Source: Candidatus Aenigmatarchaeota archaeon
GTDB lineage: Archaea > Thermoplasmatota > Thermoplasmata > Halarchaeoplasmatales > Halarchaeoplasmataceae
Direction of reading: 5' to 3'
Length of the DNA: 64,000 nucleotides
Assembly (NCBI GenBank): GCA_046537845.1
Contig: JBKHKA010000004.1
Coordinates: 24,586 to 88,585, forward strand
Position numbers and translations under genes: made by a program. Under the pieces are notes generated by a model. The model was not told the origin of the DNA, searched no databases, and worked only from the letters and a program-made list of their open reading frames with translations. Within the stretch, counting starts at the first letter, position 1; each line of letters opens with the position of its first letter. Shown piece after piece: positions 32,235 through 50,891 of the stretch.

Positions 32235-32245
32235 GGGCGGCAGAG

Positions 32246-33199: not shown

Positions 33200-33228
33200 A
33201 GTATGATCTCAAATTTCACTTCACTACA

Positions 33229-36010: not shown

Positions 36011-36532
36011 ATGACGTTATACGAGTTCGAAGGGAGAAGACCCAATGTGGCCGATAGTGCATATGTAAGTGGGAGTGCAGAAGTTGTCGGTGATGTGACG
36101 ATCGGTGAGGACTGCTTCATAGGACCAGGTGCCAAGATAAAAGGGGATTACGGCACCGTGGTCATCGGAGATAATACGAACATACAAGAAAATTGTGTCG
36201 TTCACGCCAGACCTGGAAAGAAAACAGTTATAGGCGACTGGGTCACCATAGGGCACGGAGCGATAATCCACGGACCGGAGATCAAGGACTACGCGGTCAT
36301 CGGGATGGGAGCTATAATAAGTGATTTCGCAGTTATCGGCGAGTGGAGCGTCGTGGGAGAAGGAGCTTTAGTTACAAACGAGAAGGAGATACCTGATGAG
36401 AAGGTAGCCGTGGGCGTACCCGCTAAAATAGTGAAAGAGGTAGATGAAGAATACAAGAAAACGTGGCGAGAGTATAAAGAGATCTACAAGGAACTTTCGA
36501 CTCGATACGAAGAGAATCTGACTAAGTTGTGA
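36011..36532 (+). CDS. Gamma-class carbonic anhydrase / hexapeptide-repeat (LbH) protein
   Basis: It has left-handed beta-helix hexapeptide repeats and the His ligands of gamma-CA-like proteins (VHAR...HGAIIHG). Confidence 0.75.
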   Translation: MTLYEFEGRRPNVADSAYVSGSAEVVGDVTIGEDCFIGPGAKIKGDYGTVVIGDNTNIQENCVVHARPGKKTVIGDWVTIGHGAIIHGPEIKDYAVIGMGAIISDFAVIGEWSVVGEGALVTNEKEIPDEKVAVGVPAKIVKEVDEEYKKTWREYKEIYKELSTRYEENLTKL

Positions 36533-36628
36533 CCGAACTGTCTAGCAATCATTTGGTTATGTAGCATATTCTCTCCCCTGACCGCGAGGGACGAAAATTT
36601 TATTTAGTGCAGTAATATTGGCGACAAC

Positions 36629-37768
36629 ATGAACTTCGAACTGACCGATAATCAGAAGATGGTCCGTAATATGGTGAAAGATTTTGCAGAGAATGAGATC
36701 GAACCAGTAGCTGATGAATTGGATGAAGAAAGGGAATATCCTCACGAGATACTCGATAAGATGTCCGATCTCGGCCTTCTCGGGATCATGATCCCCGGGG
36801 AGTATGATGGAGCTGGGATGGATACCGTTAGCTTCGCCATAGTGATCGAGGAGATATCGAGAAAGTGTGCGGCTACTGGCGTTATAACCGAAGTCCATAA
36901 CTCATTGGTCGCCAGCCCTATAATGCATTATGGGACGGAAGAACAGAAAGAAAAATATTTACCGATGTTAGCGAACGGTGAAAAGATCGGTGGATTCGGC
37001 GGTACAGAACCGGACGCCGGGACTAATCTCGGTGCCATGCAGACTACCGCCGAGAAGGACGGCGACAAATACATAATCAATGGCCAGAAAACATTCATAA
37101 CCAGCGGCAGCGAAGCGGGGCTTTTTCTAATCTTCGCAGTGACCGACAAAAGCAAGGGTCGGAAGGGGATAAGTGCATTCATCGTCGAAAGCGATACGGA
37201 CGGATTTGAAGTAGGGGACGTTTTCGATAAGATGGGTATCCACGCCAATAAGGTTTCTGAGCTCTTCTTCGAAGATATGGAAGTTCCCGAGGAAAATCTG
37301 CTTGGAGAAGAGGGCGAGGGGTATAAGATAGCCCTCAGTGCCCTCGATCACGGGAGGATAGGGATAGGTGCTCAGGCTGTCGGGATCGCCCAGGCTGCTC
37401 TTGACGAAACCATCGAATACTCTCAACAGAGAGAGCAATTCGGTAAGCCTATATCTAATTTTCAAGCGATACAGTTCAAATTAGCCGACATGGAAACCAG
37501 GACTCAAGCTGCGAGGTTGCTCGTCTATAACGCCGCGGACGCTGCAGACCGTGGTGAAAGGTTCACGAAAGAGGCTTCTATGGCCAAGTTGTTCGCCTCT
37601 GAAGTGGCGATGGATGCCGCAGATGAAGGTGTCCAAATCCATGGAGGCTATGGTTATATAGAGGAATACAAGGTAGAGCAGCTCTTCAGGGACGCGAAGA
37701 TAACCGAAATTTATGAAGGTACTTCGGAAGCTCAAAAAATGGTGATCGCAAGAAGTCTTTTAAGTTGA
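36629..37768 (+). CDS. Acyl-CoA dehydrogenase (short/medium chain type)
   Basis: ELTDNQKMVRNMVKDFAE, the FAD/CoA-binding core and the C-terminal EIYEGTSEAQKMVIAR are all present. Confidence 0.9.
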   Translation: MNFELTDNQKMVRNMVKDFAENEIEPVADELDEEREYPHEILDKMSDLGLLGIMIPGEYDGAGMDTVSFAIVIEEISRKCAATGVITEVHNSLVASPIMHYGTEEQKEKYLPMLANGEKIGGFGGTEPDAGTNLGAMQTTAEKDGDKYIINGQKTFITSGSEAGLFLIFAVTDKSKGRKGISAFIVESDTDGFEVGDVFDKMGIHANKVSELFFEDMEVPEENLLGEEGEGYKIALSALDHGRIGIGAQAVGIAQAALDETIEYSQQREQFGKPISNFQAIQFKLADMETRTQAARLLVYNAADAADRGERFTKEASMAKLFASEVAMDAADEGVQIHGGYGYIEEYKVEQLFRDAKITEIYEGTSEAQKMVIARSLLS

Positions 37769-37769
37769 G

Positions 37770-38549
37770 GTGGTAGAGATGAATATTGCGGTCTGTGCGA
37801 AGGAAGTTGTCGACGTCTCTGAGATTAAGATAGATGAAAAAACGAATGAGCCTATCTTAGAGGGTATCTCAAGGGAAGTCAGCGATATAGAAAAAAGTGC
37901 TGTCGAGGAAGCTATAAAGATAAAAGAGGAGTACGGCGGAAAGATAACTGTTTTGACCGTTGGATCCGTGGAGAACATGGAGAATATCAAGGAGTTACTT
38001 GCCATGGGGGCAGACGAAGCGGTGATAATATATCCTCCTAGGGAAACTGATTATACGGTGGTGTCGGAGCTGTTAGCCGGTGCGATAAAAGAGATCGGCG
38101 ATATCGAACTAGTGCTGTGCGGTGAAGCCTCGATTGATCTGTTCTCTGGCCAGGTCGGTCCCAGGATAGCTGAATTACTCGATATCCCACAGGTTACTTA
38201 TGCCGAGAACCTTGAAGTTGAAGAAGAAAAGATAATTGGGGAAAGGGATGTCGGCGGAAACAAGGTCATGACGGTAGAATCACCTTATCCTGTGGTGGTC
38301 ACCGTGACCAAGGAGATAAACGAGCCGCGGTTACCGAGTCTTCAGGAGATTCTAGGGGCGGCGAATAAACCTATAAATGAATGGGAGCCGGAGGAATTCA
38401 TGGACCATGAGTTAGAACCTACCACTGAGACGAGGAACATAAGAGGAGTTTCTATGGAACGCAAGAACATGATATTTGATGAGGACGAACTTGAGGATTC
38501 TGTCAAAAAACTTGCCGAGAGCCTTGCCAAGGAAGGTCTACTGGGGTGA
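37770..38549 (+). CDS. etfB: Electron transfer flavoprotein, beta subunit
   Basis: MNIAVCAKEVVD matches the EtfB N-terminus. The probable ATG is at 37779. It lies 1 nt after the ACAD stop. Confidence 0.9.
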   Translation: MVEMNIAVCAKEVVDVSEIKIDEKTNEPILEGISREVSDIEKSAVEEAIKIKEEYGGKITVLTVGSVENMENIKELLAMGADEAVIIYPPRETDYTVVSELLAGAIKEIGDIELVLCGEASIDLFSGQVGPRIAELLDIPQVTYAENLEVEEEKIIGERDVGGNKVMTVESPYPVVVTVTKEINEPRLPSLQEILGAANKPINEWEPEEFMDHELEPTTETRNIRGVSMERKNMIFDEDELEDSVKKLAESLAKEGLLG

Positions 38550-38555
38550 AAAAAG

Positions 38556-39530
38556 ATGGTGTTGATATATTCCGACGACGAAGATATAACCAAAGAGTTG
38601 ATAGCTAAAGGAAAGGAGTTAGCGGATGAGAAAGGTAGTGGTAGTAAGGTTACTTCGGTAATCATCGGCGAAGAAGATGAAAGCGTAACTGATGAGTTAG
38701 CTAATGAGTTGATCCATCGTGGTTCCGATGAAGTCATCATCGCCAGTGCGGAGATAGACCAGTTCAAGGCAGAAGAGTACGCCCAGGTTTTGAACCAACT
38801 GGTAGAAAAGACCGATTCGGAGATCGTATTGATCGGTTCCGATAAGACCGGAAAGGAATTAGCCCCAAGACTGGCGGCAAAGCTAAAGACGGGCTGCGTG
38901 ACCGATTGCACGGACCTTTACTTTGAGGACGGAACCCTGATCACGGAGAGGATAGCTTACAGCGGAAACGCGGTCGCCGTACAAAATTTCATCTCAGAAC
39001 CTTACGTGCTGACGATCCCGGCGAAGAACTTCGATCCTCTGCCCAAGGACGAGGGTAGAGAAGGGGAGATAACTCGGGAAGAACTGGAAGTCATAGAGGC
39101 TGAGTCAAAAATCATAGATATCAAGGAAAAAGAGGGTGAGGCGGTCAACGTCGAGGATGCGGAGATAATAGTCTCCTGCGGTCGGGGTTTCGACAATAGG
39201 GAAGACCTCGACCTTGCAGAGGACCTTGCGGGAGTCCTCCAGGGAGGAACTATGGGTTGCTCCAGGCCGGTCGCTGCCGATCTTAAATGGCTGCCGGAGG
39301 ACCACTGGATAGGACTTTCGGGACACGAAGTGAAGCCCAATCTTTACGTGGCCATAGGGATATCGGGTCAGATCCAGCACATAGCAGGCATGCGTGATTC
39401 TGGGACTGTAGTTGCTATAAATAAGGACGAGGACGCGCCCATCTTTGAATCCGCCGATTATGGGATAGTGGGCGATCTCTACGAAGTCCTGCCGAAATTG
39501 GTCGAGGCGATAAACGAGGAAAGAGGCTGA
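38556..39530 (+). CDS. etfA: Electron transfer flavoprotein, alpha subunit
   Basis: VAIGISGQIQHIAGM matches the FAD-binding C-terminal domain. Confidence 0.9.
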   Translation: MVLIYSDDEDITKELIAKGKELADEKGSGSKVTSVIIGEEDESVTDELANELIHRGSDEVIIASAEIDQFKAEEYAQVLNQLVEKTDSEIVLIGSDKTGKELAPRLAAKLKTGCVTDCTDLYFEDGTLITERIAYSGNAVAVQNFISEPYVLTIPAKNFDPLPKDEGREGEITREELEVIEAESKIIDIKEKEGEAVNVEDAEIIVSCGRGFDNREDLDLAEDLAGVLQGGTMGCSRPVAADLKWLPEDHWIGLSGHEVKPNLYVAIGISGQIQHIAGMRDSGTVVAINKDEDAPIFESADYGIVGDLYEVLPKLVEAINEERG

Positions 39531-39632
39531 TAACGGCTGATCCTTGAATGGGCTCACTAGGTTAATTAATATTTGAACTCGAGGAGAACCATCACTTTAT
39601 CCTCTTCACCAATCTTAAATAATTGTAATCTA

Positions 39633-39656
39633 TACCACCTATGCAATCGAAGAGTT
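39633..39656 (+). promoter_or_regulatory. Candidate operator: TACCACCTATG box abutting an AATCGAAGAGTT box, 23-46 nt upstream of the thiolase ATG
   Basis: The same 11-mer, TACCACCTATG, recurs at 52957..52967. AATCGAAGAGTT recurs at 48890..48901, preceded by CACCCCTATTCAA at 48864..48876. Confidence 0.35.
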
Positions 39657-39678
39657 GATAGTTAAAGGAGAGATATAC

Positions 39679-40857
39679 ATGAAAAATGCTGTAATAGTTT
39701 CTGCTGTAAGAACACCGATCGGCAAATTTGGAGGAACCCTGAAGAACGTACGAGCCCCTAAACTGGGTAGTATAACGATCGACGAGGCGGTCGATAGAGC
39801 AGGGATAGAAAAAGGAGACGTTGACGAGGTACAGATGGGATTGGTTTTGTCGGCGGGCATGGGACAGAATCCGGCCCGTCAAGCCGCGCTTGAAGCTGAG
39901 ATCCCTGTAGATGTCGGAGCCGTGACTGTAAACAAGGTCTGCGGCTCAGGACTCAAGACCGTTATGAACGCCGCTAACAGCATCAAAGCCGGGGAGTATG
40001 AAACTATAGTTGCCGGAGGAATGGAAAATATGGATAAGGCTCCCTATATCTTGAGGAAGGCAAGATACGGCTACAGGATGAACGACGGGGACCTTGTCGA
40101 TGCGATGGTCTACGACGGGCTATGGGATTATTTCAACGATTTTCATATGGGTATAACCGGTGACAGGATAGCCGAAAGATTTGATTTGAGCAGAGAGGAT
40201 ATCGATAGATTCGCTCTCCGGAGTCATCAACTCGCTGCCGAAGCAAGGGAGGAGGGAAAATTTGATGATGAGATAGTGCCTGTAGAGGTTCCCCAGAGGA
40301 GAGGTGACCCGATTCTTTTTGAGGAAGACGAAGGTATACGGCCCGATACTTCGCTAGAACAACTCAGCAAACTTTCACCGGCTTTTCAAGAAGACGGATA
40401 TATCACCGCGGGAAATGCTTCACAGATTTCCGCTGGTTCTTCTGCTACAGTCGTGACGAGTGAGGAGAATGCAGAAGAAAAAGGAATCGAGCCCATGGCC
40501 AAGATAGTCGATTATTACACGTCTGGAGTTAAACCTGAGAACGTCATGGAAGCCCCTATACCCGGTATAAGAACAATCCTTGAGAGAAATGATCTTGACA
40601 TCGCTGATTTAGACTTGGTAGAGCATAACGAGGCTTTCGCCTCCGCTTCTGCAGCTATACAGAATGAATTCGAGATTCCTGATGAAAAATTAAACGTTCA
40701 CGGCGGAGCGGTAGCGTTGGGCCACCCCATAGGGTGCAGCGGAACCAGGATTTTGACCACTCTTCTCTATGCATTGAAACAGAGAGGGGGAGGAAGAGGT
40801 CTGGCAACCGCCTGCCTAGGCGGCGGAAATGCTGTCACGATGATTGTTGAGATGTGA
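39679..40857 (+). CDS. Acetyl-CoA C-acetyltransferase (thiolase II, bacterial type)
   Basis: MKNAVIVSAVRTPIGKF, NKVCGSGLK (active Cys) and the C-terminal GGGNAV are present. The ATG at 39679 is preceded by AAAGGAGAG. Confidence 0.9.
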   Translation: MKNAVIVSAVRTPIGKFGGTLKNVRAPKLGSITIDEAVDRAGIEKGDVDEVQMGLVLSAGMGQNPARQAALEAEIPVDVGAVTVNKVCGSGLKTVMNAANSIKAGEYETIVAGGMENMDKAPYILRKARYGYRMNDGDLVDAMVYDGLWDYFNDFHMGITGDRIAERFDLSREDIDRFALRSHQLAAEAREEGKFDDEIVPVEVPQRRGDPILFEEDEGIRPDTSLEQLSKLSPAFQEDGYITAGNASQISAGSSATVVTSEENAEEKGIEPMAKIVDYYTSGVKPENVMEAPIPGIRTILERNDLDIADLDLVEHNEAFASASAAIQNEFEIPDEKLNVHGGAVALGHPIGCSGTRILTTLLYALKQRGGGRGLATACLGGGNAVTMIVEM

Positions 40858-40897
40858 AGATTGAATACAAAATGGAATAGAAAAAGAGGTAGATAAA

Positions 40898-41749
40898 ATG
40901 GATATAGGAAAAATAGGAGTAGTCGGCGCGGGAACCATGGGTCACGGTATAGCACAGGTTTCAGCCGCTAATGGATATCAAGTGGTAATGAGAGACATCA
41001 AACAGGAATTTTTAGATAACGGCATGAAGGGGATAAAGAGATCGCTGTCTAAAGGAGTAGAAAAAGATAAGATCTCGGAAGAAGAGAAAGAGGAGATGCT
41101 GGAAAGGATCGAGACCACCCTCGAACTGGAGGACTTGAGCGATTGCGATCTCATCATAGAAGCGGTGGTAGAGGACTTCGATATAAAGAAAGATGTATTC
41201 AAGGAACTGGACGAACTGTGCGGTCCGGATACGATTTTTGCCTCTAATACCTCGACGATCCCGATAACTAAGATGGCTGGGATCACCGACAGGCCGGAGA
41301 AGTTCATCGGGATGCACTTCATGAACCCGGTCCCAAAGATGGCTCTTGTAGAGGTGATTCGATCACTGACCACTTCGGATGAAACCACGAATACCATAAT
41401 CTCCGTGGCTGAAGAGATGGGAAAAGAACCCGTGGAAGTGAACGATTCCCCCGGTTTCGTCTCTAACCGGGTCTTGATACCCATGATCAACGAGGCGATC
41501 TACTGCGTTCAGAACGGCATCGCTGACCCAGAAGATGTCGACAAAGTAATGAAACTAGGTATGAATCATCCCATGGGGCCGTTAGAATTAGGTGACCTGA
41601 TTGGTCTGGATACCGTACTCCATATAATGGAGGTCCTTTACGAAGAGTTCAACGACTCGAAGTATCGATCGTGTCCCCTCTTGAAGAAAAAGGTTAGAGC
41701 CGGAGAACTGGGTAGGAAGAGCGGAAAAGGATTTTACGACTACAGTTGA
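40898..41749 (+). CDS. hbd: 3-hydroxyacyl-CoA / 3-hydroxybutyryl-CoA dehydrogenase
   Basis: [16 protein letters not shown] is the NAD-binding Rossmann motif, in the HADH family. Confidence 0.9.
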
Positions 41750-41750
41750 G

Positions 41751-42521
41751 GTGATCTTCATGATCGAGATAGAGAGAGAGGGCGACATCACTATAATCAA
41801 ATTGGACAATCCCCCGGTAAATGCGGTATGTACTGAACTTTTGGACGAATTGGATGAGAAGTTGGACGAGGTTAAGAACGACGACAGCAGAGCGGTCATA
41901 ATGACCGGTAAGGGCAAGGCCTTCGTCGGGGGAGCAGATATCAAAGAGATGAAGGAGATGGACCCGAAAGAGGCGAACCAGTTCTCCCAAAAAGGTCAGT
42001 CCGTTTTGAACTGGATAGAGAACCTTCCTAAGCCCATAATAGCGGCCGTCAACGGCTTCGCCCTCGGTGGAGGTTCCGAGCTCGCGATGAGCTGTGATTT
42101 CATCATCGCTTCGGAGAAGGCAAAGTTCGGTCAGCCTGAAGTGGGACTAGGGCTCATCCCAGGGTTCGGCGGGACCCAGCGTTTAGCACGGTTGATAGGT
42201 ATGGGTCCTGCGAAAGAATTGATATTTACCGGTAAACAGATCGGCGCCGAAGAGGCCGAAAGATTGGGATTGGTAAATCACGTAGTGGAAGCGGACGAGT
42301 TGATGGATTTCTGCCGAGAGATAGCCGAGGAGATATCATCTAACGGGCCGTTAGCTGTTCGCTACGCTAAATTATCGATGAACGACGGGATCAAGGTTCC
42401 TCTCGACGAAGGCTTGAAAATAGAATCTGAACAGTTCGAAAGATGTTTTGAAACCGAGGATCAGGAAGAAGGTTTGGAGGCATTTATAGAAAAAAGGGAA
42501 GCCAAATTTAAAGGAGAATGA
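41751..42521 (+). CDS. crt: Enoyl-CoA hydratase (crotonase)
   Basis: AAVNGFALGGGSELAMSCDFIIASEKAKFGQPE is the crotonase-fold signature. The probable ATG is at 41760. Confidence 0.9.
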   Translation: MIFMIEIEREGDITIIKLDNPPVNAVCTELLDELDEKLDEVKNDDSRAVIMTGKGKAFVGGADIKEMKEMDPKEANQFSQKGQSVLNWIENLPKPIIAAVNGFALGGGSELAMSCDFIIASEKAKFGQPEVGLGLIPGFGGTQRLARLIGMGPAKELIFTGKQIGAEEAERLGLVNHVVEADELMDFCREIAEEISSNGPLAVRYAKLSMNDGIKVPLDEGLKIESEQFERCFETEDQEEGLEAFIEKREAKFKGE

Positions 42522-43064
42522 GTGAGTGAAACGATGAGCTTGATAGATCTAACCTCCATGGCGGAACCAGACGAAGAGCTGCAGGAAAAGATAGAGGAAA
42601 CTTTAGAAGGGTTAAGAGAGGATATACCTGATTTCTGCTACCAGTGCGGTAAATGTACATCTGGATGTGAAGCTTTTATCTTATTGGAACTGGAGCCCCA
42701 TTCAATCATGGGAAAATCAAGGGCCGGTTTTATAGACGAACTAGTGAATTCAGACGAGATCTGGACCTGCATGCAGTGTTTCAAGTGTCAAGAGAGGTGT
42801 CCGCAGGATCTTTCCCCGGTCAGGATGATTTTTGCACTTAAGAACCTCGCCGTGGCCTCGGGAAAAGAGATACCCAGCGGTTATCAGAAGATGCTACAGT
42901 CGGTTCTCGGCAACGGGCTGATCCAGCAGACCAAAGAGGTGCTGAACCGGGCGAACAATACCAGAAAGAGAGATGATTATGACCTCCCCCCCGTTCCCCA
43001 GCCTGAAGATATGGATAAAGTCCAGCAGATATTGATTAAAGCGACCCAGGAGAAACTGAGGTGA
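42522..43064 (+). CDS. hdrC: Heterodisulfide reductase subunit C
   Basis: It has two ferredoxin-type motifs, CYQCGKCTSGCEA and CMQCFKCQERCP. It starts at the nucleotide after the crt stop (GTG 42522 or ATG 42534). Confidence 0.85.
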   Translation: MSETMSLIDLTSMAEPDEELQEKIEETLEGLREDIPDFCYQCGKCTSGCEAFILLELEPHSIMGKSRAGFIDELVNSDEIWTCMQCFKCQERCPQDLSPVRMIFALKNLAVASGKEIPSGYQKMLQSVLGNGLIQQTKEVLNRANNTRKRDDYDLPPVPQPEDMDKVQQILIKATQEKLR

Positions 43065-43948
43065 TTATGATGGAGAAGCTTGGCTTATATCTTGGATGTG
43101 TTATCCCGACAGAACAGTATGCCTATGAGATGTCCATCAGGGAAGTACTTCCCCGATTTGATATAAAATTGACGGACCTGGACGAAGCCACTTGCTGTGG
43201 AGCTCCTCTCAGAAATATAAACTTGTTCACGACTATGTACCTTTCCGCGAGGAACATGGCGCTCTGTGAAAAGGAGGGCATAGATCTCTACGCTCCCTGC
43301 CCGATATGTCACCTGGCTTTGACCGAGGCAAAGGAGAAGTTGGAAGAAAATCAAGAGTTGAAAGACAAGATAAATTCAAAGCTGGAGGAAGAGGACTTAC
43401 GATACGAGGGAACTACGGAACTATATCATACACTGGATCTACTGCATGACGTGATCGGGTTGGACGAGATAAAAGATAAGGTGGAGGAACCTTTAGAAGA
43501 TATCACCTTCGCAGCTCACTACGGTTGTAATTCCATCCGACCTAACGCTCTTCCGAGACCCGATGATTCCGAAAATCCCCGAAAGCTGGAAGAACTTATG
43601 GAGGGGATCGGGATGAAAACGGAAGATTATCCGGAGAAACTCAACTGCTGCGGGGGTCAAGTAATATTGGATTACAACGAATCAGCCCTGACCAAGGCCG
43701 GCGAAAAAATCGAGGCGGTGCAGAATCAGGGATTCGATGGCATGTCGACGGTCTGCCCGTGGGGTCACAGGATGCTTGATTCTAAACAGGACAGCGCCGC
43801 CGATACCATAGGAGGATCCTTGGACCTGCCGGTGTTGTATTATATTCAACTCTTGGGGATAGCGATGGGCATCGATCAATCTAAGTTAGGACTAGAATTA
43901 AACCTGAGTCCTATAGATAAATTAGATATCATCGAGGAGGTTGAATGA
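43061..43948 (+). CDS. hdrB: Heterodisulfide reductase subunit B (two CCG domains)
   Basis: CCG domain cysteine patterns are present (..ATCCGAP.., ..NCCGG..). It overlaps the hdrC stop. Confidence 0.85.
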   Translation: MIMMEKLGLYLGCVIPTEQYAYEMSIREVLPRFDIKLTDLDEATCCGAPLRNINLFTTMYLSARNMALCEKEGIDLYAPCPICHLALTEAKEKLEENQELKDKINSKLEEEDLRYEGTTELYHTLDLLHDVIGLDEIKDKVEEPLEDITFAAHYGCNSIRPNALPRPDDSENPRKLEELMEGIGMKTEDYPEKLNCCGGQVILDYNESALTKAGEKIEAVQNQGFDGMSTVCPWGHRMLDSKQDSAADTIGGSLDLPVLYYIQLLGIAMGIDQSKLGLELNLSPIDKLDIIEEVE

Positions 43949-43949
43949 T

Positions 43950-45932
43950 ATGTCAGGAATAGGCGTCTTTATCTGTCACTGCGGGACAAATATAGCGGGA
44001 AGTGTGGATGTGGAAGAATTGACGGAATATGCATCTAATTTGAACGGAGTGACCTTTGCAACCAATTACAAATACATGTGTTCGGACCCTGGCCAAGAAT
44101 TGATCAAAGAGAATATCGAAGAGCACGACCTGGACGGTGTGGTCGTTGCGGCTTGCTCACCCAGGATGCACGAACCGACGTTCCAAGCCGTCCTCGAAGA
44201 TGCTGGTTTAAACCCCTATCGCTTTCAGATGGCCAATATAAGGGAACACTGTGCTTGGGTCCACAGCGATGATATGGAAAAAGCTACGGAGAAGGCAGAA
44301 CATTTGGTAAAGATGAGCGTGGAGAAAGCTCGCTTATCTGAAGACCTTGAAAAGACCGAGATAGATGTCAATTCAGATGCGTTAGTCATCGGTGGAGGGA
44401 TTGCCGGGATACAGGCCGCACTAGATCTCGCGGATCAGGGTAAAAAAGTCTATCTTGTCGAACGAGAACCCAGTATAGGTGGAAAGATGGCCCAATTGGA
44501 CAAGACTTTCCCCACTTTAGACTGTTCCTCCTGTATCTTGACTCCTAAGATGACCGACGTGGCTCGTAATCCGAATATCGAATTACTCACTTATTCAGAA
44601 GTCGAAGAGGTCGATGGCAGCGTAGGAGACTTTGAGGTAAAGGTGAAGAAGAAGGCCACCTACGTCGATTGGGACAAGTGTACCGCATGTGGAGAGTGTG
44701 CAGAAGTGTGCAGGATGGAAGGCCAGATCGCCGACGAGTTCAACGAAGAGCTGGATAAACGCTCCGCTATCTATACGCCCTTCCCGCAGGCGGTACCCGC
44801 CGCGTATACCATCGATCCGGAGAACTGCCTGTATGTCCAGACAGGAAAGTGCGGTGATTACCCGCCCTGTAAAGAAGTATGTGATCTCGACGCTATAGAC
44901 CACGAAGACGAGGACGAGATAGTAGAACTGAACGTCGGCTCCATCATCGTAGCTACTGGCTACGACCTCATGGACCCGGAGAAGATGTACGAGTATGGTT
45001 ATGGTAAATCCGAAAATGTAATCACAAATCTAGAATTGGAGAGGATAATAGACGCTTCGGGACCCACCGAAGGTGAGATACATAGGTTATCGGATGGAGA
45101 AGAAGTGGAAAGCGTGACCTTCATCCTATGCGTCGGGTCTAGAGACGAGGAATTACAGTCTTACTGCTGCAGGATAGGCTGTATGGGCGCCCTGAAGCAC
45201 GTACACCTGTTGAGAGAACACCTGGACGAAGATGTGGACATAAACATCTGCTATACTGATATCCGATCCTTCGGAAAGGGCTATGAAGAGTTCTACAGGA
45301 GGACGAGAGGATTAGACGTGAACTTCGTTCGTGGGAGGCCTTCGGAGGTCAGCGTTCGAGAAGAGAAGGTAGAACTGAACGTCTTCGATACTACCATGGA
45401 TAAGCTCCTTCAGATGGAATCCGATCTGGTCGTTTTGGTCCCTGCACTACTTCCGAGCGAGGGTACCGAAGAACTGTCGAGGCAGCTGCGGATAACCCGT
45501 TCTGGGGACGGCTTCCTTCAAGAGGCGCACCCCAAGTTGAGACCCGTGGACACTTTCACGAACGGGATATTCATAGCGGGATGCTGTCAAGGGCCAAAAG
45601 ATATACCAGATTCAGTATCACAGGCTTCTGGAGCGGCTGCAAAGGCTTCTACCATTTTGTCCAAGGAAAAATTACAATCCGAAGCCACCATAGCCTCCAT
45701 AGACGAGGATATCTGTAGCGGATGTAAGATGTGCATATCGGTCTGCCCCTACGAGGCCATAGAATACGATGAAGAAGACGAAGTTGCGAAGGTTACCGAC
45801 GTGCTCTGTATGGGGTGCGGTTCCTGCGCGAGTGTTTGTCCTTCAGGCGCTATCGAGCATAAAGGATTTAAAGATGAGATGTTAGAGGCGATGATAGAAG
45901 CAGGCCTGTCAGAAGGCGAGGCGATAGAATGA
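43950..45932 (+). CDS. hdrA: Heterodisulfide reductase subunit A (FAD, multiple Fe-S clusters)
   Basis: IGVFICHCGTNIAG, the FAD-binding GGGIAGIQAALDLA and several CxxCxxCxxxC clusters are present. The ATG at 43950 follows GAGGAGG. The ORF-track frame begins at TTG 43941. Confidence 0.9.
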   Translation: MSGIGVFICHCGTNIAGSVDVEELTEYASNLNGVTFATNYKYMCSDPGQELIKENIEEHDLDGVVVAACSPRMHEPTFQAVLEDAGLNPYRFQMANIREHCAWVHSDDMEKATEKAEHLVKMSVEKARLSEDLEKTEIDVNSDALVIGGGIAGIQAALDLADQGKKVYLVEREPSIGGKMAQLDKTFPTLDCSSCILTPKMTDVARNPNIELLTYSEVEEVDGSVGDFEVKVKKKATYVDWDKCTACGECAEVCRMEGQIADEFNEELDKRSAIYTPFPQAVPAAYTIDPENCLYVQTGKCGDYPPCKEVCDLDAIDHEDEDEIVELNVGSIIVATGYDLMDPEKMYEYGYGKSENVITNLELERIIDASGPTEGEIHRLSDGEEVESVTFILCVGSRDEELQSYCCRIGCMGALKHVHLLREHLDEDVDINICYTDIRSFGKGYEEFYRRTRGLDVNFVRGRPSEVSVREEKVELNVFDTTMDKLLQMESDLVVLVPALLPSEGTEELSRQLRITRSGDGFLQEAHPKLRPVDTFTNGIFIAGCCQGPKDIPDSVSQASGAAAKASTILSKEKLQSEATIASIDEDICSGCKMCISVCPYEAIEYDEEDEVAKVTDVLCMGCGSCASVCPSGAIEHKGFKDEMLEAMIEAGLSEGEAIE

Positions 45933-46375
45933 CAGAAAATAAAGATTTCGAGCCGAAGATAATAGCTTTTCTATGCAACTGGTGCAGCTACGCCGGGGCC
46001 GACCTGGCCGGTGTGAGTAGAGAACAGTATCCTCCAAACATTTTGAACATGAAGGTCATGTGTTCTTCGAGAGTTTCTCCAGAACATATTTTCGACTCAT
46101 TTCAGAAAGGTGCCGACGGTGTTCTCATCGCGGGATGTCACCCCGGCGACTGCCACTATATCGACGGAAATTATAAGACCATCAGGAAAACAGAACTGAT
46201 GTGGAAGATGCTGGAGGATTTTGGTATAGATCCTCACAGATTGAGACTGGAATGGATATCATCCGCTGAAGGAGGCAAGTTCGCTAGCATGATGAGAGAG
46301 ATGACAGAGGACATACGGGAATTGGGTCCGCTGGAGATGAACGGTCATTCCAAGGGAGAGGATAAAGATGAGTGA
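45929..46375 (+). CDS. mvhD: Methyl-viologen-reducing hydrogenase delta subunit
   Basis: IIAFLCNWCSYAGADLAG matches the MvhD signature. Its ATG overlaps the hdrA TGA (ATGA). Confidence 0.9.
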   Translation: MTENKDFEPKIIAFLCNWCSYAGADLAGVSREQYPPNILNMKVMCSSRVSPEHIFDSFQKGADGVLIAGCHPGDCHYIDGNYKTIRKTELMWKMLEDFGIDPHRLRLEWISSAEGGKFASMMREMTEDIRELGPLEMNGHSKGEDKDE

Positions 46376-47348
46376 AGACAAGAAAACCATAGGATTTTAC
46401 TGGTGCGCATCTTGTGGCGGGTGCGAGATCAGTGTGTTAGATATAGACGAGATGATCTTGGACGTGGTCGAGAAGGCCGACATCAAATTTTGGCCGTGTG
46501 CCATGGATCCAAAATATGATGACGTAAGAGCCATGAACGACGATGAGTTCGATTTCATATTCATAAACGGCTCCATACGCTCCGAGGAGAACGAGGAGAT
46601 GGTAAAACTGCTGCGGAAGAAAGCCAAAAACGTGGTGGCTTACGGCTCCTGTTCCAGTATTGGCGGATTGTTCGGTTTGGGTAATCTTCACAGCAGTCAG
46701 GAACTGCTTGATAAAGGCTACAATACTAGATCTACTGACGAAGGTCCGATGCCTAAAAAAGTAAGTAAAGTTGAAGAAGGGGAATTGGAACTTCCAGAAT
46801 TGACACTTCATGTGACTCCACTAGAGGACGTCATAGAGGTCGATTATTATATCCCCGGATGTCCTCCCCTGCCGGTCCAACTTGAGGAGGCGTTCCCGGC
46901 GCTTTTGGACGACGATACCGAAGTGGGGAAATACGATTTCATCTCGGAAAAGAGCGTATGCGACGAGTGCCCCATGGAGAGAGAAGAGAAGAATATAGAG
47001 AGGTTGATCCCGATACAGGAGAAAATGGACATCGACCCGGTGGAATGTTTGCTGGACCAGGGTGTCCTATGCATGGGTCCCGCTTCGGCAGGTATGTGTG
47101 AAGCTGCCTGCCCCTCGGTTGGTCATCCCTGCATCGGCTGTAACGGACCTACAAGAGAAGTTGCGGACCAGGGAGGAAGGATGGCTTCGGCCTTGGCGTC
47201 CGTGATCGCTATCGAGGGAGAAGAGAGAAAGACGGAAGAGGATATCAGAGATGCGATGGAGAGTGTGAGAGATCCGACTGGATCGTTCTATAGATTCAGT
47301 CTTCCGACCAGCATCTTGAGATATAAAAGAGGGGATACCGATGAGTGA
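46368..47348 (+). CDS. mvhG: F420-non-reducing [NiFe] hydrogenase small subunit
   Basis: FYWCASCGGCEISVLD is the proximal Fe-S cluster motif of NiFe hydrogenase small subunits. Confidence 0.85.
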   Translation: MSEDKKTIGFYWCASCGGCEISVLDIDEMILDVVEKADIKFWPCAMDPKYDDVRAMNDDEFDFIFINGSIRSEENEEMVKLLRKKAKNVVAYGSCSSIGGLFGLGNLHSSQELLDKGYNTRSTDEGPMPKKVSKVEEGELELPELTLHVTPLEDVIEVDYYIPGCPPLPVQLEEAFPALLDDDTEVGKYDFISEKSVCDECPMEREEKNIERLIPIQEKMDIDPVECLLDQGVLCMGPASAGMCEAACPSVGHPCIGCNGPTREVADQGGRMASALASVIAIEGEERKTEEDIRDAMESVRDPTGSFYRFSLPTSILRYKRGDTDE

Positions 47349-48801
47349 AAAGAAGAAGATATCCATAGATCCTATAACGAGGTTAGAAGGCCACGGTAAG
47401 ATAGAGATATTTTTGGATGATGAGAAAGAAGTGGAGAACGCCTATCTTCAGGTACCGGAGTTCAAGGGCTTTGAAAAGTTCTGTCAGGGAAGAAGGGCAG
47501 AGGACATGCCCACCATAACTAGCAGGATATGTGGTGTATGTCCGGTAGCCCATCATCTTGCTTCGACAAAAGCTTTAGATGCTGCCTATAACGTAGAACC
47601 GCCCGAGCCGGCGGAGAAACTGAGAGAACTCTTCTATAACGGCTATATCTATGCGGATCATCTTTTACACTTCTACTATCTAGCCAGTCCCGATTTCCTG
47701 GTCGGCACGGACGCCCCGAAAGAAGCGAGGAACATATTGGGGGTTATAGAGGAAGTTGGAGTCGATATAGGAAAGAAGGTCATCAAACAGAGGGGCAAGG
47801 GTCAGGAGATCATCCGCATGCTGGGGGGAAAGGCGGTACATCCGAGCTTCGGTGTCCCCGGTGGCGTGGTGAAATCACTAGATAACGAAGAGAGAGAGGA
47901 ACTGATAGAGTTGTCCGACGATATGGTCGATTTTGCAGAGTTCACTCTTGACCTGTTCAAAGATGAAGTGCTGAGTGAGTTTGAAGAGCCGATAAAAGAA
48001 GATCGTTTGGAGACCTATAGCATGGGTCTGACCGAGGACGGAGAACTCAGCCATACCGGAGGTATCGTGAATGTGGTGACCCCGGATGGTGAAGATCTTA
48101 CCGATTTCTCTGGCGAAGATTATCTTGACGTTATCAGAGAACATAAGGAATCCTGGAGTTATATGAAATTCCCGTATCTGAAAGAGGTGGGATGGGAAGG
48201 ATTCGTGGATGGTGAAGATTCAGGTGTGTACCGTGTCGGCCCGTTGGGCAGAGTGAACGCATCCGAGGGCATGAAAACTGAGAAGGCCCAGGAAGGATAT
48301 GAAGAACTCTTCGAAATGTTGGGATATCCGGTCCACTCGACATTGGCTTACCACTGGGCCAGGTTGATAGAGGTCCTTCAAGCCGCTGAGTTGGTTCAGA
48401 AATTGGCACACGACGAGGACCTGGAAAGCGATAACATCCGGAACGAGCCCGGGGAACCGGGAAAGGGTGTAGGTATCGTGGAAGCGGCGAGAGGGACGCT
48501 GATCCACGATTACGAATTGGACGAAGATGGATTGGTTAAAGATCTCAATCTTATTGTAGCTACCACCCACAATGCGGCACCTATATCGATGAGTATCAGA
48601 GATGCTGCCAAAAAGTATATCGACGCAGGAGATGTTCAAGAAGGGATGCTCAACAGCGTCGAGAGAGCTTTCAGGGCTTACGATCCGTGCCTGGCCTGTG
48701 CTACACACTCCGCGATGGGAGAGACGCCCTTGAAGGTCAATATCTATGACAAGGACGGAAAAAATTTGAAGGAGGTCACCCAGGGGATAGGTGAAAGCTA
48801 G
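47341..48801 (+). CDS. mvhA: F420-non-reducing [NiFe] hydrogenase large subunit
   Basis: The N-terminal RICGVCPVAHHLAS and the C-terminal DPCLACATH are NiFe-ligating CxxC pairs. A roughly 30-aa C-terminal tail after His suggests maturation-protease processing. Confidence 0.9.
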   Translation: MSEKKKISIDPITRLEGHGKIEIFLDDEKEVENAYLQVPEFKGFEKFCQGRRAEDMPTITSRICGVCPVAHHLASTKALDAAYNVEPPEPAEKLRELFYNGYIYADHLLHFYYLASPDFLVGTDAPKEARNILGVIEEVGVDIGKKVIKQRGKGQEIIRMLGGKAVHPSFGVPGGVVKSLDNEEREELIELSDDMVDFAEFTLDLFKDEVLSEFEEPIKEDRLETYSMGLTEDGELSHTGGIVNVVTPDGEDLTDFSGEDYLDVIREHKESWSYMKFPYLKEVGWEGFVDGEDSGVYRVGPLGRVNASEGMKTEKAQEGYEELFEMLGYPVHSTLAYHWARLIEVLQAAELVQKLAHDEDLESDNIRNEPGEPGKGVGIVEAARGTLIHDYELDEDGLVKDLNLIVATTHNAAPISMSIRDAAKKYIDAGDVQEGMLNSVERAFRAYDPCLACATHSAMGETPLKVNIYDKDGKNLKEVTQGIGES

Positions 48802-48995
48802 AATAGGTAGTATATATTTAAATCATGAACAAGTGATGGGGACATTTCGAAAGATGGTCTGTGCACCCCTATTCAAGTAGATTCTATCAAATCGAAGAGT
48901 TTAAATCTATCTTTCATAATTTGAAAGCGGTTTTACATAAAAAAACAAATTGGATTAGTTGGGTAAAACTTGGAAGAACAAAAAAGGTGAAAAAA

Positions 48996-50891
48996 ATGGA
49001 TGAATATGAGAAAGTATATGAAGAATCATTAGAGAACCCTAGATCATTTTGGGCAGACGCGGCTGAAGATATAGAATGGGATGAAAAATGGGATCACGTT
49101 TTAGATGAGTCTAACAAACCGTTCTATAGGTGGTTTTCAGGAGGAAAGCTCAATACCTGTTATAATGCAGTCGATTATCATATCAAAGATGGCAGAGGTG
49201 ATCAAGATGCTATCATATATGATAGCCCAGTAACAGATACGATAGAGAAATATTCCTTCGAAGAGTTGAAAGAGCGGGTTTCAAAGATCGCGGGATTCCT
49301 GAGAGAACTCGGGGTCGAGAAGGGCGATACGGTAGTTATCTACATGCCCATGATACCCGAGTCTCTAATGGCCATGTTAGCGTGCGCACGGATAGGCGCC
49401 GTTCATTCCGTCGTGTTCGGCGGTTTTGCATCCAATGAACTGGCGATCAGAGTGGATGATGCCGAACCCGACGTTATACTTTCTGCATCATGCGGGATCG
49501 AACGGGACGAGGTCATAGAGTACAAACCTCTTCTTGACGAGGCGATAGAACTGGCGGAGAACAAGCCCACGAAGTGCGTTATCAAGCAGAGACCCGAGTA
49601 CGAAGGCGAACTTATCGAGGGGAGAGACTATGATTGGGACGAGCTGGAAGAAGAGGCCGAACCCGCAGACTGCGTCTCTGTAGGTGCTAATGATCCTCTT
49701 TATGTGTTGTATACTTCTGGAACCACGGGTAAGCCCAAGGGAGTCGTCAGAGATAATGGCGGACACGCCGTGGCATTGAAATGGTCTATGAGAAATGTTT
49801 ATGGGGTAGAACCCGGAGACGTTTACTGGGCCGCTTCAGATGTCGGCTGGGTCGTGGGTCATTCTTATATCGTCTATGCACCGCTCTTGATCGGCGCTAC
49901 CACGGTCATGTACGAAGGTAAACCTGTTGGAACTCCTGATCCAGGTGCGTTTTGGCGGGTCATCTCTCAGCATGACGTCGACGTGTTGTTCACAGCTCCT
50001 ACAGCCATCAGGGCTATAAAAAGAGAGGATCCAGAGGCGGAGTACTTTGAAGATTACGATGTTTCCGGTTTGGATTCGCTCTTCCTAGCGGGTGAAAGGA
50101 CCGATCCCGATACCTATCATTGGGTTTCCGATCTGCTGCAAGTCCCGGTTATCGACCACTGGTGGCAGACGGAGACAGGGTGGCCAATCGTAGGGAACTT
50201 CAGAGGATTAGAGCAGTTCCCGATCAAACCGGGTTCGGCGACCAAACCTATGCCCGGATATGACCTTCAAATATTGGATCCCCAGACTGGAGAGGAGTTA
50301 CCTCCTGGCGAGACCGGAGTGATCGCGATCAAGCTTCCTTTACCACTAGGGAACTTCATCACTTTGTGGAATAACGATGAGAAGTTCAAGCAGGAATATA
50401 TGGATCCCTTCCCGGGCTATTATTTCACCGGCGACGCAGGCTTCGTCGACGAGGATGGCTATGTGTCCATCATGGGGCGGGTAGATAACGTCATCAATGT
50501 AGCTGGACATAGACTCTCTACCGGCAGTATGGAAGAAGCAGTCGCGAAGCATGATGCGGTAGCGGAGTGTGCAGTGGTAGGTATCAATGACGAGTTGAAG
50601 GGTGAAGTGCCCCTTGGCTTCCTGGTATTGAAGTCGGGTGTCGATCAAGATCATGAGGAAATAAAATCGGAAGTTATACAGATGGTCAGGGATGAAGTGG
50701 GTCCAATTGCGTCTTTCAAGAAGGTGCTGATCGTCGACGAGCTGCCAAAGACACGATCTGGTAAGACGCTGAGAGGGACCATGAAGAAGATAGCCGACGG
50801 TGAAGATTACTCCGTACCTTCAACTATCGCGGACGAGGGAGCTTTAGATACTATAGAAGAGGCGATAGAGGAAGAAGGGGTAGAAAAGTAA
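48996..50891 (+). CDS. prpE: Propionate--CoA ligase / acetyl-CoA synthetase family (PrpE-like)
   Basis: YTSGTTGKPKGVVRDNGGHAVAL resembles the PrpE variant of the ACS motif. The ATG at 48996 follows AAAAAGGTGA. The ORF-track frame starts upstream at 48861. Confidence 0.8.
   Translation: MDEYEKVYEESLENPRSFWADAAEDIEWDEKWDHVLDESNKPFYRWFSGGKLNTCYNAVDYHIKDGRGDQDAIIYDSPVTDTIEKYSFEELKERVSKIAGFLRELGVEKGDTVVIYMPMIPESLMAMLACARIGAVHSVVFGGFASNELAIRVDDAEPDVILSASCGIERDEVIEYKPLLDEAIELAENKPTKCVIKQRPEYEGELIEGRDYDWDELEEEAEPADCVSVGANDPLYVLYTSGTTGKPKGVVRDNGGHAVALKWSMRNVYGVEPGDVYWAASDVGWVVGHSYIVYAPLLIGATTVMYEGKPVGTPDPGAFWRVISQHDVDVLFTAPTAIRAIKREDPEAEYFEDYDVSGLDSLFLAGERTDPDTYHWVSDLLQVPVIDHWWQTETGWPIVGNFRGLEQFPIKPGSATKPMPGYDLQILDPQTGEELPPGETGVIAIKLPLPLGNFITLWNNDEKFKQEYMDPFPGYYFTGDAGFVDEDGYVSIMGRVDNVINVAGHRLSTGSMEEAVAKHDAVAECAVVGINDELKGEVPLGFLVLKSGVDQDHEEIKSEVIQMVRDEVGPIASFKKVLIVDELPKTRSGKTLRGTMKKIADGEDYSVPSTIADEGALDTIEEAIEEEGVEK

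Follow-up and report, generated by a model that had tools for sequence, protein, structure and literature searches.

In a 64,000-nucleotide stretch of contig JBKHKA010000004.1 (positions 24,586 to 88,585; hereafter the window), from an archaeon of the Thermoplasmatota, we found an array of twelve genes that places a short-chain acyl-CoA module directly before genes for a heterodisulfide reductase (Hdr)-like complex and a [NiFe]-hydrogenase. The order is acd-etfB-etfA-thl-hbd-crt-hdrC-hdrB-hdrA-mvhD-mvhG-mvhA, each product being assigned to its family by Pfam, and all twelve open reading frames (ORFs) that a first-pass annotation had placed on one strand at 36629-48801 are present there on the plus strand (Table 1). 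We predict, with about an even chance of being right, that the array encodes a soluble, cytoplasmic MvhADG-HdrABC chassis for electron bifurcation or confurcation, whose high-potential partner would be the enoyl-CoA/acyl-CoA couple reached via a canonical electron-transfer flavoprotein (ETF, here EtfAB or Etf). The gene identities, cofactor motifs and conserved synteny are directly observed, and from these we infer the contact of Etf with HdrB, the stoichiometry, the direction of electron flow, physical coupling and co-transcription. A further-reaching proposal, to which we give somewhat less than an even chance, is that this represents a new type of bifurcating enzyme, namely an H2-dependent, ferredoxin-reducing enoyl-CoA reductase (reversibly, an acyl-CoA/ferredoxin-dependent H2-evolving enzyme) in which ETF replaces the heterodisulfide, and that the HdrCBA of benthic Thermoplasmatota are a plug-in hub for flavoprotein dehydrogenases (e.g., Acd/Etf and GlpA-like enzymes). 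From the first-pass interpretation of a bifurcating acyl-CoA/hydrogenase unit we retain the acyl-CoA/Etf-Hdr linkage, which is conserved in several arrangements, but not bifurcation by the Etf, a single promoter for the array or constancy of the Mvh partner.

Gene families were assigned by Pfam and subfamilies by NCBIfam searches, matches to solved structures are compared by bit score, and the family scans covered the ~47 larger ORFs of the window, with ~15 ORFs in 1-17.5 kb falling outside them. With starts supported by a ribosome-binding site, i.e., a GGAGG/GAGGTG-like site ahead of the start codon (for etfB, thl, crt, hdrB and hdrA; Table 1), the successive junctions measure 10, 6, 148, 40, 10, 0, 5, 1, -4, -8 and -8 nt, and the resulting HdrB of 292 aa and HdrA of 660 aa agree with those in a separate public annotation of an identical contig. 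The tight coupling claimed earlier, with longest-ORF starts, thus holds for most junctions (-8 to +10 nt) but not for the gaps of 148 and 40 nt. The ATGA overlap of hdrA and mvhD is real in the sequence, and so is the abutment of the crt stop at 42521 on the hdrC GTG at 42522, although an alternative hdrC start (ATG 42534) would leave a 12 nt gap after crt. The co-oriented array runs on past mvhA into genes for an acyl-CoA ligase and then an acetate channel. As none of the twelve proteins has a hydrophobic segment, we predict the system to be soluble, the acetate channel being the sole membrane protein in the set.

Relatives were collected in three ways, by scanning species-representative genomes with HdrA, by looking up the context of identical proteins and by scanning metagenomes with an HdrB profile, and all 167 retrieved loci (L numbers below) were analysed by tblastn with the window proteins. 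The closest HdrA relatives, at 89-95% identity, belong to Thermoplasmatota metagenome-assembled genomes (MAGs). The succession thl-hbd-crt to hdrC-hdrB-hdrA is shared by the window, L001-L003, L081, L082/83/86, L084/85, L087 and L088, amounting to at least six lineages; in this crt-linked set HdrB identity is 59-86%, HdrA identity falls as low as 67%, and crt and hdrC lie on the same strand with a spacing of 0-72 nt. Because the same order is found both in close relatives (L001-L003) and in those at 59-71% (L081, L082/L086, L084, L087, L088), we take the linkage to be more than chance. After hdrA, the window and L002 continue with mvhDGA in line; L081 and L088 with an acyl-CoA ligase and, beyond it and on the other strand, mvhDGA; L084 with a ligase and a hydrogenase maturation protease up to the contig end; and the soda-lake lineage L082 with very large FAD/Fer4_20/Pyr_redox_2 proteins, MvhD and an FrhB-like protein, but no hydrogenase. 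The ligase, standing directly after hdrA in L081, L084 and L088, is a conserved member of the cluster, and the acetate channel is 98% identical in L002 and encoded between etfA and thl in L081.

Acd/Etf genes also reach hdrCBA by other routes. In L119, from another Thermoplasmatota lineage, the overlapping genes run acd-ligase-etfB-etfA-x-hdrC-hdrB-hdrA-mvhD-mvhG-mvhA-hycI with no thl, hbd or crt, and we take the composition of its acd-ligase-etfBA part to resemble the caffeate operon carB-carC-carDE. L101 has ligase-etfB-etfA-hdrCBA, L110 and L111 have etf just upstream of hdrC, and L005 has acd-ligase-etfBA-DUF6125-...-hdrCBA with the gene for an HpaB-family (HpaB/AbfD-like) protein before hdrCBA, a family that includes the crotonyl-CoA-forming 4-hydroxybutyryl-CoA dehydratase. 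The Acd/Etf proteins of L119, L101 and L005 are orthologous to those of the window at 54-70% identity. In Verrucomicrobiota/Planctomycetota, etfBA sit inside hdr-mvhDGA clusters, with an EtfD-like Fer4+CCG protein in L069. The survey for the full twelve-gene synteny thus returned thl-hbd-crt-hdrCBA in at least six lineages, but in-line mvhDGA was confined to the window clade and L119; what stays with the acyl-CoA genes throughout is HdrCBA, not MvhDGA. The notion that Mvh is dispensable or variable had to be toned down, as in the window, L002, L081, L088 and L119 its genes lie in line or no more than a few kb away, and only in L082/L086 are they clearly replaced.

Fifty-six family loci extend 2.6 kb or more ahead of hdrB; among these, the gene upstream of hdrC is crt in nine and etfA directly in three (two more having it slightly further off); ten have a GlpA-like FAD dehydrogenase with an FAD oxidoreductase and DUF1667, six have hdrA-mvhD, and the remaining 28 have heterogeneous genes or nothing, so that no single common upstream partner was found in these other loci. 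The presence of the GlpA-like set at the equivalent position (10/56) suggests that HdrCB serves flavoprotein dehydrogenases in a modular fashion. This set (a DAO/Fer2_BFD dehydrogenase, an FAD oxidoreductase and DUF1667 directly before hdrCBA on the same strand) occurs in MBG-D-type Thermoplasmatota (e.g., SG8-52-1), being seen in L167 (4430-10974), L089, L092, L094, L097, L129, L133, L140, L143 and L148, and may supply this HdrCBA family with a second flavoprotein-dehydrogenase partner.

Further architectures were noted in the same survey. In L082 (11967-21965, equivalent to L086), the genes after hdrA encode, in order, a 1502-aa FAD/Fer4_20/Pyr_redox_2 protein, MvhD, an FrhB-like protein, a ferredoxin, an HdrA-like protein of 1017 aa and another MvhD; NAD(P)H/F420-type modules have apparently taken the place of the electron-input module. 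In the bacterial L069 (1881-15101), a two-component system precedes hdrC-hdrB-etfB-etfA, a 733-aa Fer4+CCG EtfD-like protein, an unassigned gene, a 403-aa Fer4+CCG HdrD-like protein and hdrA-mvhD-mvhG-mvhA; related layouts occur in L058, L061, L070, L072 and L079, and our literature searches returned no prior description of such a bacterial Etf-Hdr-Mvh cluster. L002 and L003 are two contigs of one MAG (GSL_GSL3510_12), each with crt-hdrC-hdrB-hdrA at 86-95% identity to the window, and represent either paralogous copies or two strains binned together. In L081 a PIN/VapB toxin-antitoxin pair (14017-14651) lies between the ligase and the inverted mvhAGD, where the gene order departs from that of the window, and may mark the rearrangement point.

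Acd carries all three acyl-CoA dehydrogenase Pfam domains and the YEGTSE catalytic-base motif; its best solved match is Bcd of the C. difficile Bcd-EtfAB complex (5ol2_C, 455 bits) and its best NCBIfam match is AcrC, below cutoff. The contiguous acd-etfB-etfA thus place a Bcd/CarC-type acyl-CoA dehydrogenase next to etfBA. Among solved structures EtfB is overall closest to CarD and C. difficile EtfB, and EtfA, over its core region only, to CarE and C. difficile EtfA. The first pass had considered an electron-bifurcating unit with a Bcd-type acyl-CoA dehydrogenase, but EtfB argues against the bifurcating Bcd-EtfAB type. The isoalloxazine of the beta-FAD needs a small residue at the Gly123 position (A. 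fermentans numbering), where canonical ETFs have a bulky one (PMC12630350). We called the Etf type by this criterion, checked on five solved bifurcating Etfs, all of which have the sequence DGDT (6fah_B, 5ol2_B, 4kpu_B, 7qh2_B and 7koe_A, i.e., CarD, C. difficile, A. fermentans, LctB and T. maritima FixA). In the window EtfB, Leu121 aligns to the invariant Gly123 and DLFS stands for DGDT, the beta-FAD motif GRQAIDGDTAQ being replaced by GEASIDLFSGQ; the Gly-to-Leu-type substitution is kept in the window, L002, L005, L081 and L082. The window Etf is probably canonical, with one FAD and AMP, and unable to bifurcate with NADH. If Leu121 makes the Etf non-bifurcating, any bifurcation must sit on HdrA, the only bifurcating-type flavoprotein in the array, and an Etf that cannot bifurcate with NADH needs an external partner, for which the array encodes no other candidate. 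No alternative ETF acceptor was found among the scanned ORFs of the 64-kb window.

The hdr-like genes are true relatives of HdrABC, as first proposed, and not members of some other CCG/ferredoxin family. HdrA aligns end to end (residues 4-655) to the solved methanogen proteins 8rvu_a/5odc_A at 755-756 bits, HdrB scores 174-175 bits to solved HdrB, and HdrC has two CX2CX2CX3C motifs (Cys 39/42/45/49 and 83/86/89/93). The maximal Kyte-Doolittle 19-residue averages of HdrC (0.81) and HdrB (1.45) speak for no transmembrane helix. All Hdr and Mvh subunits score below the NCBIfam equivalog cutoffs, which marks them as relatives of the methanogen enzymes rather than orthologues. In HdrB, Gly233 aligns to Cys234 of the methanogen protein and no further cysteine follows Cys230; nine of the ten CCG cysteines are kept, the N-terminal CCG site is fully intact, and the change falls on the C-terminal non-cubane cluster. 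In each of the two HdrB non-cubane clusters the catalytic iron carries a bridging cysteine, Cys81 or Cys234, which is displaced on disulfide binding (PMC13083937), and the loss of Cys234 thus fits a site that no longer performs standard heterodisulfide chemistry. Gly233 is found in every locus where crt precedes hdrC. The Gly233 clade is mostly monophyletic, includes a sister group with fused HdrA-MvhD and no acyl-CoA genes, and the residue arose independently once more in L099. As an exclusive marker of beta-oxidation-linked Hdr, Gly233 was ruled out by L099/L100 and the L123 group. The crt-linked clade differs from Cys-type relatives at only four HdrB positions, of which three (9, 228 and 233) adjoin cluster cysteines. 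HdrA residues 405-412 (DNA ~45162-45185) read YCCRIGCM versus YCS[RK]xCCM in methanogen and bacterial HdrA, with one cluster-ligand cysteine shifted and the HdrA cysteine motifs otherwise conserved; CCRIGC was considered as a locus-specific adaptation and rejected, as it is common to all 63 retrieved Thermoplasmatota-type HdrA proteins.

The hydrogenase is of the Mvh/Vhu type with intact NiFe motifs, in agreement with the first pass: MvhA has RICGVCPVAHH and AYDPCLACATH, which match the group 3c large-subunit motifs L1 (ICGxCxxxH) and L2 (AYDPCxxCATH; PMC6085437). These occur together with the FlpD domain of MvhD and the Oxidored_q6 domain of MvhG, and the class is assigned by motifs and best matches, the best solved matches of MvhA being the large subunit of the bifurcating NiFe-HydABCSL (7t2r_D, 403 bits) and MvhA itself (5odc_F, 382 bits). 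Genes for methanogenesis or its cofactors were not found among the scanned ORFs.

In the mechanism that we propose, H2 would be oxidised at MvhA and its electrons would be relayed by MvhG and then MvhD to the HdrA FAD. The HdrA flavin would split each pair, one electron going uphill to ferredoxin via the ferredoxin-like domains of HdrA and the other downhill via the cubane clusters of HdrC and the CCG clusters of HdrB to the alpha-FAD of EtfAB and on to Acd, where crotonyl-CoA, or an enoyl-CoA of greater chain length, would be reduced to the acyl-CoA. The net reaction would be 2 H2 + Fd(ox) + crotonyl-CoA -> Fd(red) + butyryl-CoA + 2 H+, and Thl, Hbd, Crt, the acyl-CoA ligase and the acetate channel would tie this step to acetate/acetyl-CoA. 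A precedent comes from class II benzoyl-CoA reductase (BCRII), in which an HdrA-type flavin sends the high-potential electron via the HdrBC-like BamD to ETF, ETF is docked in situ beside the two non-cubane clusters of BamD, and ETF with butyryl-CoA dehydrogenase reduced crotonyl-CoA in vitro; the heterodisulfide pocket of BamD is filled and one non-cubane cluster is degenerate by cysteine substitution (bioRxiv 10.64898/2026.04.10.717634). Likewise, an HdrBC-homologous module in EtfD/EMO, with altered CCG ligands, takes electrons from the beta-oxidation ETF (PMC13083937). Together the BCRII and EtfD structures make a branch from HdrB to ETF credible.

The potentials are ~-10 mV for crotonyl/butyryl-CoA, -414 mV for H2 and -450 to -500 mV for ferredoxin. 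Calculated from standard potentials, the forward reaction is more exergonic than that of methanogens, and the reverse would need H2 below about 0.4 Pa and a supply of reduced ferredoxin. The conversion of 2 acetate + 2 H2 to butyrate has a ΔG0' of ~-48 kJ/mol; since this route comes near equilibrium at a few Pa of H2 and at the H2 levels of sediments, the system is probably reversible. We lean slightly toward the H2-consuming, ferredoxin-reducing direction, because an AMP-forming acetate/propionate ligase stands beside an acetate channel, the nearest characterised relatives of Acd (Bcd and AcrC) are reductive, and genes for polyhydroxyalkanoate (PHA) synthesis lie downstream; the canonical Etf and the extra acyl-CoA ligases oppose this lean. 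Those opposing features speak for an oxidative role of the same architecture, which we regard as rather unlikely: electrons from acyl-CoA (~-10 mV) and reduced ferredoxin would be confurcated at HdrA and leave as H2 via Mvh in syntrophic butyrate or fatty-acid beta-oxidation, as a soluble substitute for the membrane-bound EMO/menaquinone reverse electron transport of Syntrophomonas and Syntrophus. A canonical Etf is the type usual in beta-oxidation, the thl-hbd-crt-acd set is full and extra ligases occur (28569-30254 in the window, and in L119/L101/L005), the acd-linked EtfB of Syntrophomonas (L031) has the same divergent motif, and a confurcating Mvh-Hdr has reportedly been proposed for other non-methanogenic archaea. 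However, beyond the H2 ceiling just given, butyrate oxidation yields no reduced ferredoxin, so that energy would have to be invested elsewhere, and the ligase is of a kind that usually runs toward the acyl-CoA; the relatives of Acd and the PHA genes likewise point the other way.

Several observations weigh against the proposed Hdr-to-Etf wiring. The call of a canonical Etf, as made from the protein alignment, stands on one diagnostic position and the divergence of its motif, and Acd/Etf are not nearby in ~3/4 of the family loci with enough flank. The Etf-linked loci with Cys-type HdrB (L119, L101, L111 and L005) keep all ten HdrB cysteines, and their Hdr could still be able to reduce a disulfide. 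In L084, acd-etf is divergent from thl...acs and encodes a different, bifurcating-type Etf (Fer4-EtfA, with the Gly retained), so the conserved link as read from this locus is that of thl-hbd-crt with hdrCBA and not that with a canonical Etf. Gly233 also occurs in loci without beta-oxidation genes (L099 and L123/128/135/138/158) and is hence a character of the clade, not a strict marker of the linkage. The altered HdrB cluster appears, by analogy with EtfD numbering, to be the one nearer HdrC, unlike the distal one altered in BamD and EtfD, and a probable internal promoter sets acd-etfBA apart from the rest of the array.

Five of the weak points (the predicted nature of the Etf-HdrB contact, the Etf-less loci, the loci with a complete site, L084 and the cluster position) make a co-regulated, disulfide-reducing Hdr-Mvh the main rival to this wiring. 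Here the gene for the acceptor of Acd/Etf electrons (EtfD/EMO-, FixCX- or ETF-QO-like) would lie outside the array, Mvh-Hdr would independently work as a conventional bifurcating enzyme that passes electrons from H2 to ferredoxin and to some (hetero)disulfide of this non-methanogen (e.g., CoA-based or protein), and the neighbourhood of the two gene sets would stem from common regulation when H2 or fatty acids are abundant. We judge this unlikely, even though HdrA, HdrC, MvhD, MvhG and MvhA are conventional, HdrB keeps nine of ten cysteines with the N-terminal CCG site intact, most family loci have no Etf nearby, the position of Mvh varies, the internal promoter is probable, and the literature generally presumes an unidentified disulfide in non-methanogens. 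Independent systems fit poorly with the fact that Acd/Etf or thl-hbd-crt abut hdrC in several orders and lineages, bacteria included, that the crt-hdrC spacing of 0-72 nt comes with no promoter-sized gap in the window, that the catalytic bridging cysteine is lost throughout the crt-linked clade, and that the Etf is predicted to be non-bifurcating with no other acceptor among the ~47 scanned ORFs of the 64 kb. A thiol shuttle, in which Acd/Etf would act as a TfrAB-like thiol:enoyl-CoA reductase making a disulfide that Mvh-Hdr re-reduces with H2 while reducing ferredoxin, is very unlikely: it would explain the co-location without protein-protein contact, and HdrB does match TfrB and SdhE-type CCG proteins at lower scores and the Cys-type Etf-linked loci keep the complete disulfide site, but the scanned ORFs include no thiol-oxidising partner or gene for thiol-cofactor biosynthesis, the Cys234 loss in the window clade speaks against standard two-cluster disulfide cleavage, and it is less parsimonious than the direct docking of ETF shown for BamD.

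The promoters bear on how far the array can be regarded as one unit. A TATA-like TTTTATTTA lies ~27 nt ahead of the acd ATG within a 25-nt block, GGGACGAAAATTTTATTTAGTGCAG, which ends 16 nt before that ATG and is identical in L002 while its flanks diverge; it is a candidate BRE/TATA (B recognition element/TATA box) promoter that would give a leaderless or near-leaderless acd mRNA. The 148-nt etfA-thl gap holds a second TATA-like element (CTTAAATAA), with a Shine-Dalgarno sequence (AAAGGAGAG, 39664-39672) between it and thl, and in the window, L001 and L002 a TATA-like island (CTTAAATA) and the stretch AAAGGAGA before thl are conserved in this gap. Because of this conserved element we favour two promoters over one, with transcription probably starting at acd and at thl, and with possible read-through. 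The co-transcription first proposed would be expected across the crt-hdrC junction, which is too short to hold a promoter, but acd-etfBA and thl...mvhA probably have separate promoters. No T-runs of six or more occur in 36-52 kb, and a scan for sigma-70 promoters and intrinsic terminators, bacterial signals in what is an archaeal host, gave counts equal to the shuffled expectation.

Comparison with known systems indicates that the array recombines known bifurcation modules into a proposed, so far undescribed set of donor and acceptors, namely H2, ferredoxin and enoyl-CoA via ETF. All six subunits of the MvhADG-HdrABC of methanogens (PDB 5ODC, 8RVU) are recognisable, as is the order hdrCBA-mvhDGA with overlapping stops and starts; unlike that system, the window belongs to a non-methanogenic host, its Hdr/Mvh scores are below the equivalog cutoffs, its HdrB lacks Cys234 and its HdrA has CCRIGC for CSRxCC, and the genes are joined to an acyl-CoA/Etf module rather than to methanogenesis. 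The BCRII of Geobacter metallireducens, Bam[(BC)2DEFGHI]2, has the HdrA-type flavin in BamE and passes electrons through the HdrBC-like BamD to ETF, as predicted for the window from the adjacency of its genes; the contiguous hdrC-hdrB-hdrA (1-5 nt gaps) similarly join an HdrA-type flavoprotein to a CCG module. The donors of Bam are reduced ferredoxin and NADH via BamGHI and its acceptor is benzoyl-CoA at a tungsten site, whereas the window system would use H2 via MvhAGD with ferredoxin as the low-potential acceptor; its HdrB and HdrC are separate and methanogen-like, and its altered cluster is apparently the other one, judging from EtfD numbering. Bcd-EtfAB and CarCDE of Clostridia and Acetobacterium woodii (5OL2, 6FAH) provide the best solved matches of Acd, EtfA and EtfB and couple an enoyl-CoA/acyl-CoA high-potential sink to ferredoxin reduction, as predicted for the window; however, the window EtfB lacks Gly123/DGDT, EtfA lacks the ferredoxin domain, and the donor would be H2 via Hdr, not NADH.

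EtfD/EMO (DUF224) of mycobacteria and syntrophs shares the HdrBC-homologous Fer4+CCG module with ligands deviating from those of catalytic Hdr (PMC13083937), but is a membrane protein that reduces menaquinone through heme b and has Fer4 and CCG fused, whereas HdrC and HdrB of the window are separate, soluble and attached to HdrA and a hydrogenase. The FlxABCD-HdrABC of sulfate reducers and syntrophs is likewise an HdrABC-MvhD-type module of non-methanogens, including fatty-acid syntrophs; it differs in taking electrons from NADH via Flx, in an HdrB only ~30% identical to that of the window with all ten cysteines, and in not being adjacent to Etf. Many Syntrophomonas loci were retrieved with the window HdrA. 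Accordingly, we place the system outside the bifurcating-Etf family since Gly123 is absent, outside the canonical heterodisulfide reductases since Cys234 is absent, and outside EtfD since there is no membrane anchor. We found no prior description of an acd/etf-hdrCBA-mvhDGA cluster in the full-text literature, subscription papers being outside that coverage.

Table 1. Coordinates and supporting evidence for the array, adjoining genes and candidate promoters in the window.
Feature	Coordinates	Strand	Evidence
Candidate archaeal promoter: BRE-like GAAAA + TATA-like TTTTATTTA at 36598-36606	36588..36612	+	
Hexapeptide-repeat protein (PaaY/CaiE/gamma-carbonic-anhydrase family)	36011..36532	+	Hexapep; PaaY 151, CaiE 131 bits, both below cutoff
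acd, short-chain (butyryl-CoA-type) acyl-CoA dehydrogenase, 379 aa	36629..37768	+	Acyl-CoA_dh_N/M/1
etfB, electron-transfer flavoprotein beta, predicted canonical (AMP-type, no beta-FAD)	37779..38549	+	Pfam ETF
etfA, electron-transfer flavoprotein alpha, without N-terminal ferredoxin domain	38556..39530	+	ETF + ETF_alpha
Candidate internal promoter, TATA-like CTTAAATAA in the 148-nt etfA-thl gap	39614..39622	+	
thl, acetyl-CoA C-acetyltransferase (thiolase)	39679..40857	+	Thiolase_N/C; TIGR01930 452 bits, cutoff 240
hbd, 3-hydroxybutyryl-CoA dehydrogenase	40898..41749	+	3HCDH_N/3HCDH; PRK05808 451 bits, cutoff 408
crt, short-chain enoyl-CoA hydratase (crotonase)	41760..42521	+	ECH_1; PRK05809 332 bits, below cutoff 394
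hdrC, two-[4Fe-4S] electron-relay subunit	42522..43064	+	Fer4_17/Fer4_8; CoB_CoM_SS_C 77 bits, below cutoff
hdrB, two-CCG-domain subunit, 9/10 canonical cysteines	43070..43948	+	Pfam CCG x2
hdrA, FAD- and Fe-S-containing predicted bifurcating subunit	43950..45932	+	FAD/Fer4; NCBIfam HdrA2 862 bits, below cutoff
mvhD, [2Fe-2S] adaptor between hydrogenase and HdrA	45929..46375	+	FlpD 178 bits; VhuD 121 bits
mvhG, [NiFe]-hydrogenase small subunit	46368..47348	+	Oxidored_q6; VhuG 201 bits, below cutoff
mvhA, group-3 (Mvh/Vhu-like) [NiFe]-hydrogenase large subunit	47341..48801	+	NiFeSe_Hases
Short-chain (acetate/propionate-type) AMP-forming acyl-CoA ligase, start uncertain	48861..50891	+	ACAS_N + AMP-binding
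SatP/YaaH-family acetate (succinate) channel	51099..51713	+	Gpr1_Fun34_YaaH

The genes around the array add further CoA-thioester functions. The ligase after mvhA scores 676 to an NCBIfam acetate-CoA ligase subfamily (cutoff 657) and 769 to PrpE (cutoff 955), and a further acyl-CoA ligase is encoded at 28569-30254. The hexapeptide protein lies directly upstream of acd in the window, L002 and L081; in bacteria, CaiE and PaaY occur together with acyl-CoA dehydrogenase/Etf or with CoA-thioester pathways. Also beside the array (31749-34908 and 35189-35722) are genes for a protein with a B12-binding domain, a MeaB GTPase, the large subunit of an acyl-CoA mutase and a corrinoid adenosyltransferase; the mutase large subunit is of the methylmalonyl/isobutyryl type, with methylmalonyl- or isobutyryl/butyryl-CoA as candidate substrates, and MeaB with the B12-binding protein adjoins acd in L081, all three mutase components being present in L082. 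Downstream, the PHA cluster (53079-59903, plus strand) comprises a 415-aa ORF with no Pfam match, an apolipoprotein-like (possibly phasin) ORF, a weak PhaE, a class III PhaC (383 against an NCBIfam cutoff of 365), two FabG/PhaB-like short-chain dehydrogenases/reductases and an enoyl-CoA hydratase; PHA genes beside C4-CoA genes are unusual for a Thermoplasmatota archaeon. The enoyl-CoA hydratase ORF (59427-59903) covers only Pfam profile positions 92-248 and has in-frame stops upstream, possibly reflecting a frameshift, a decayed gene or an assembly error. Elsewhere in the window we noted a 1057-aa AAA_16 + TPR (STAND-like) protein at 25373-28546, L081 likewise encoding a 950-aa TPR protein close to its array, and an ORF of more than 930 aa at 61202-64000 that is cut off by the 3' boundary. 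A gene for a TATA-binding protein at 18667-19215 shows the DNA to be archaeal, and scanning the window with Rfam and for tRNAs gave no matches.

HdrABC-MvhADG are widespread in non-methanogenic archaea and bacteria that lack CoM-S-S-CoB, and their substrate is usually written as an 'unknown disulfide'. The array and its relatives offer a specific candidate for the high-potential substrate of such non-methanogen Mvh-Hdr systems, namely ETF and through it the enoyl-CoA/acyl-CoA couple. As the components are soluble and encoded in one array, heterologous reconstitution is realistic. If the proposal is true, a new combination of donor and acceptors (H2, ferredoxin and crotonyl-CoA) would join the short list of bifurcating reactions, the wiring from HdrA through HdrBC to ETF known from benzoyl-CoA reductase would be a general design, and the modelling of butyrate and fatty-acid turnover and of H2 cycling would change for the abundant Thermoplasmatota of sediments.

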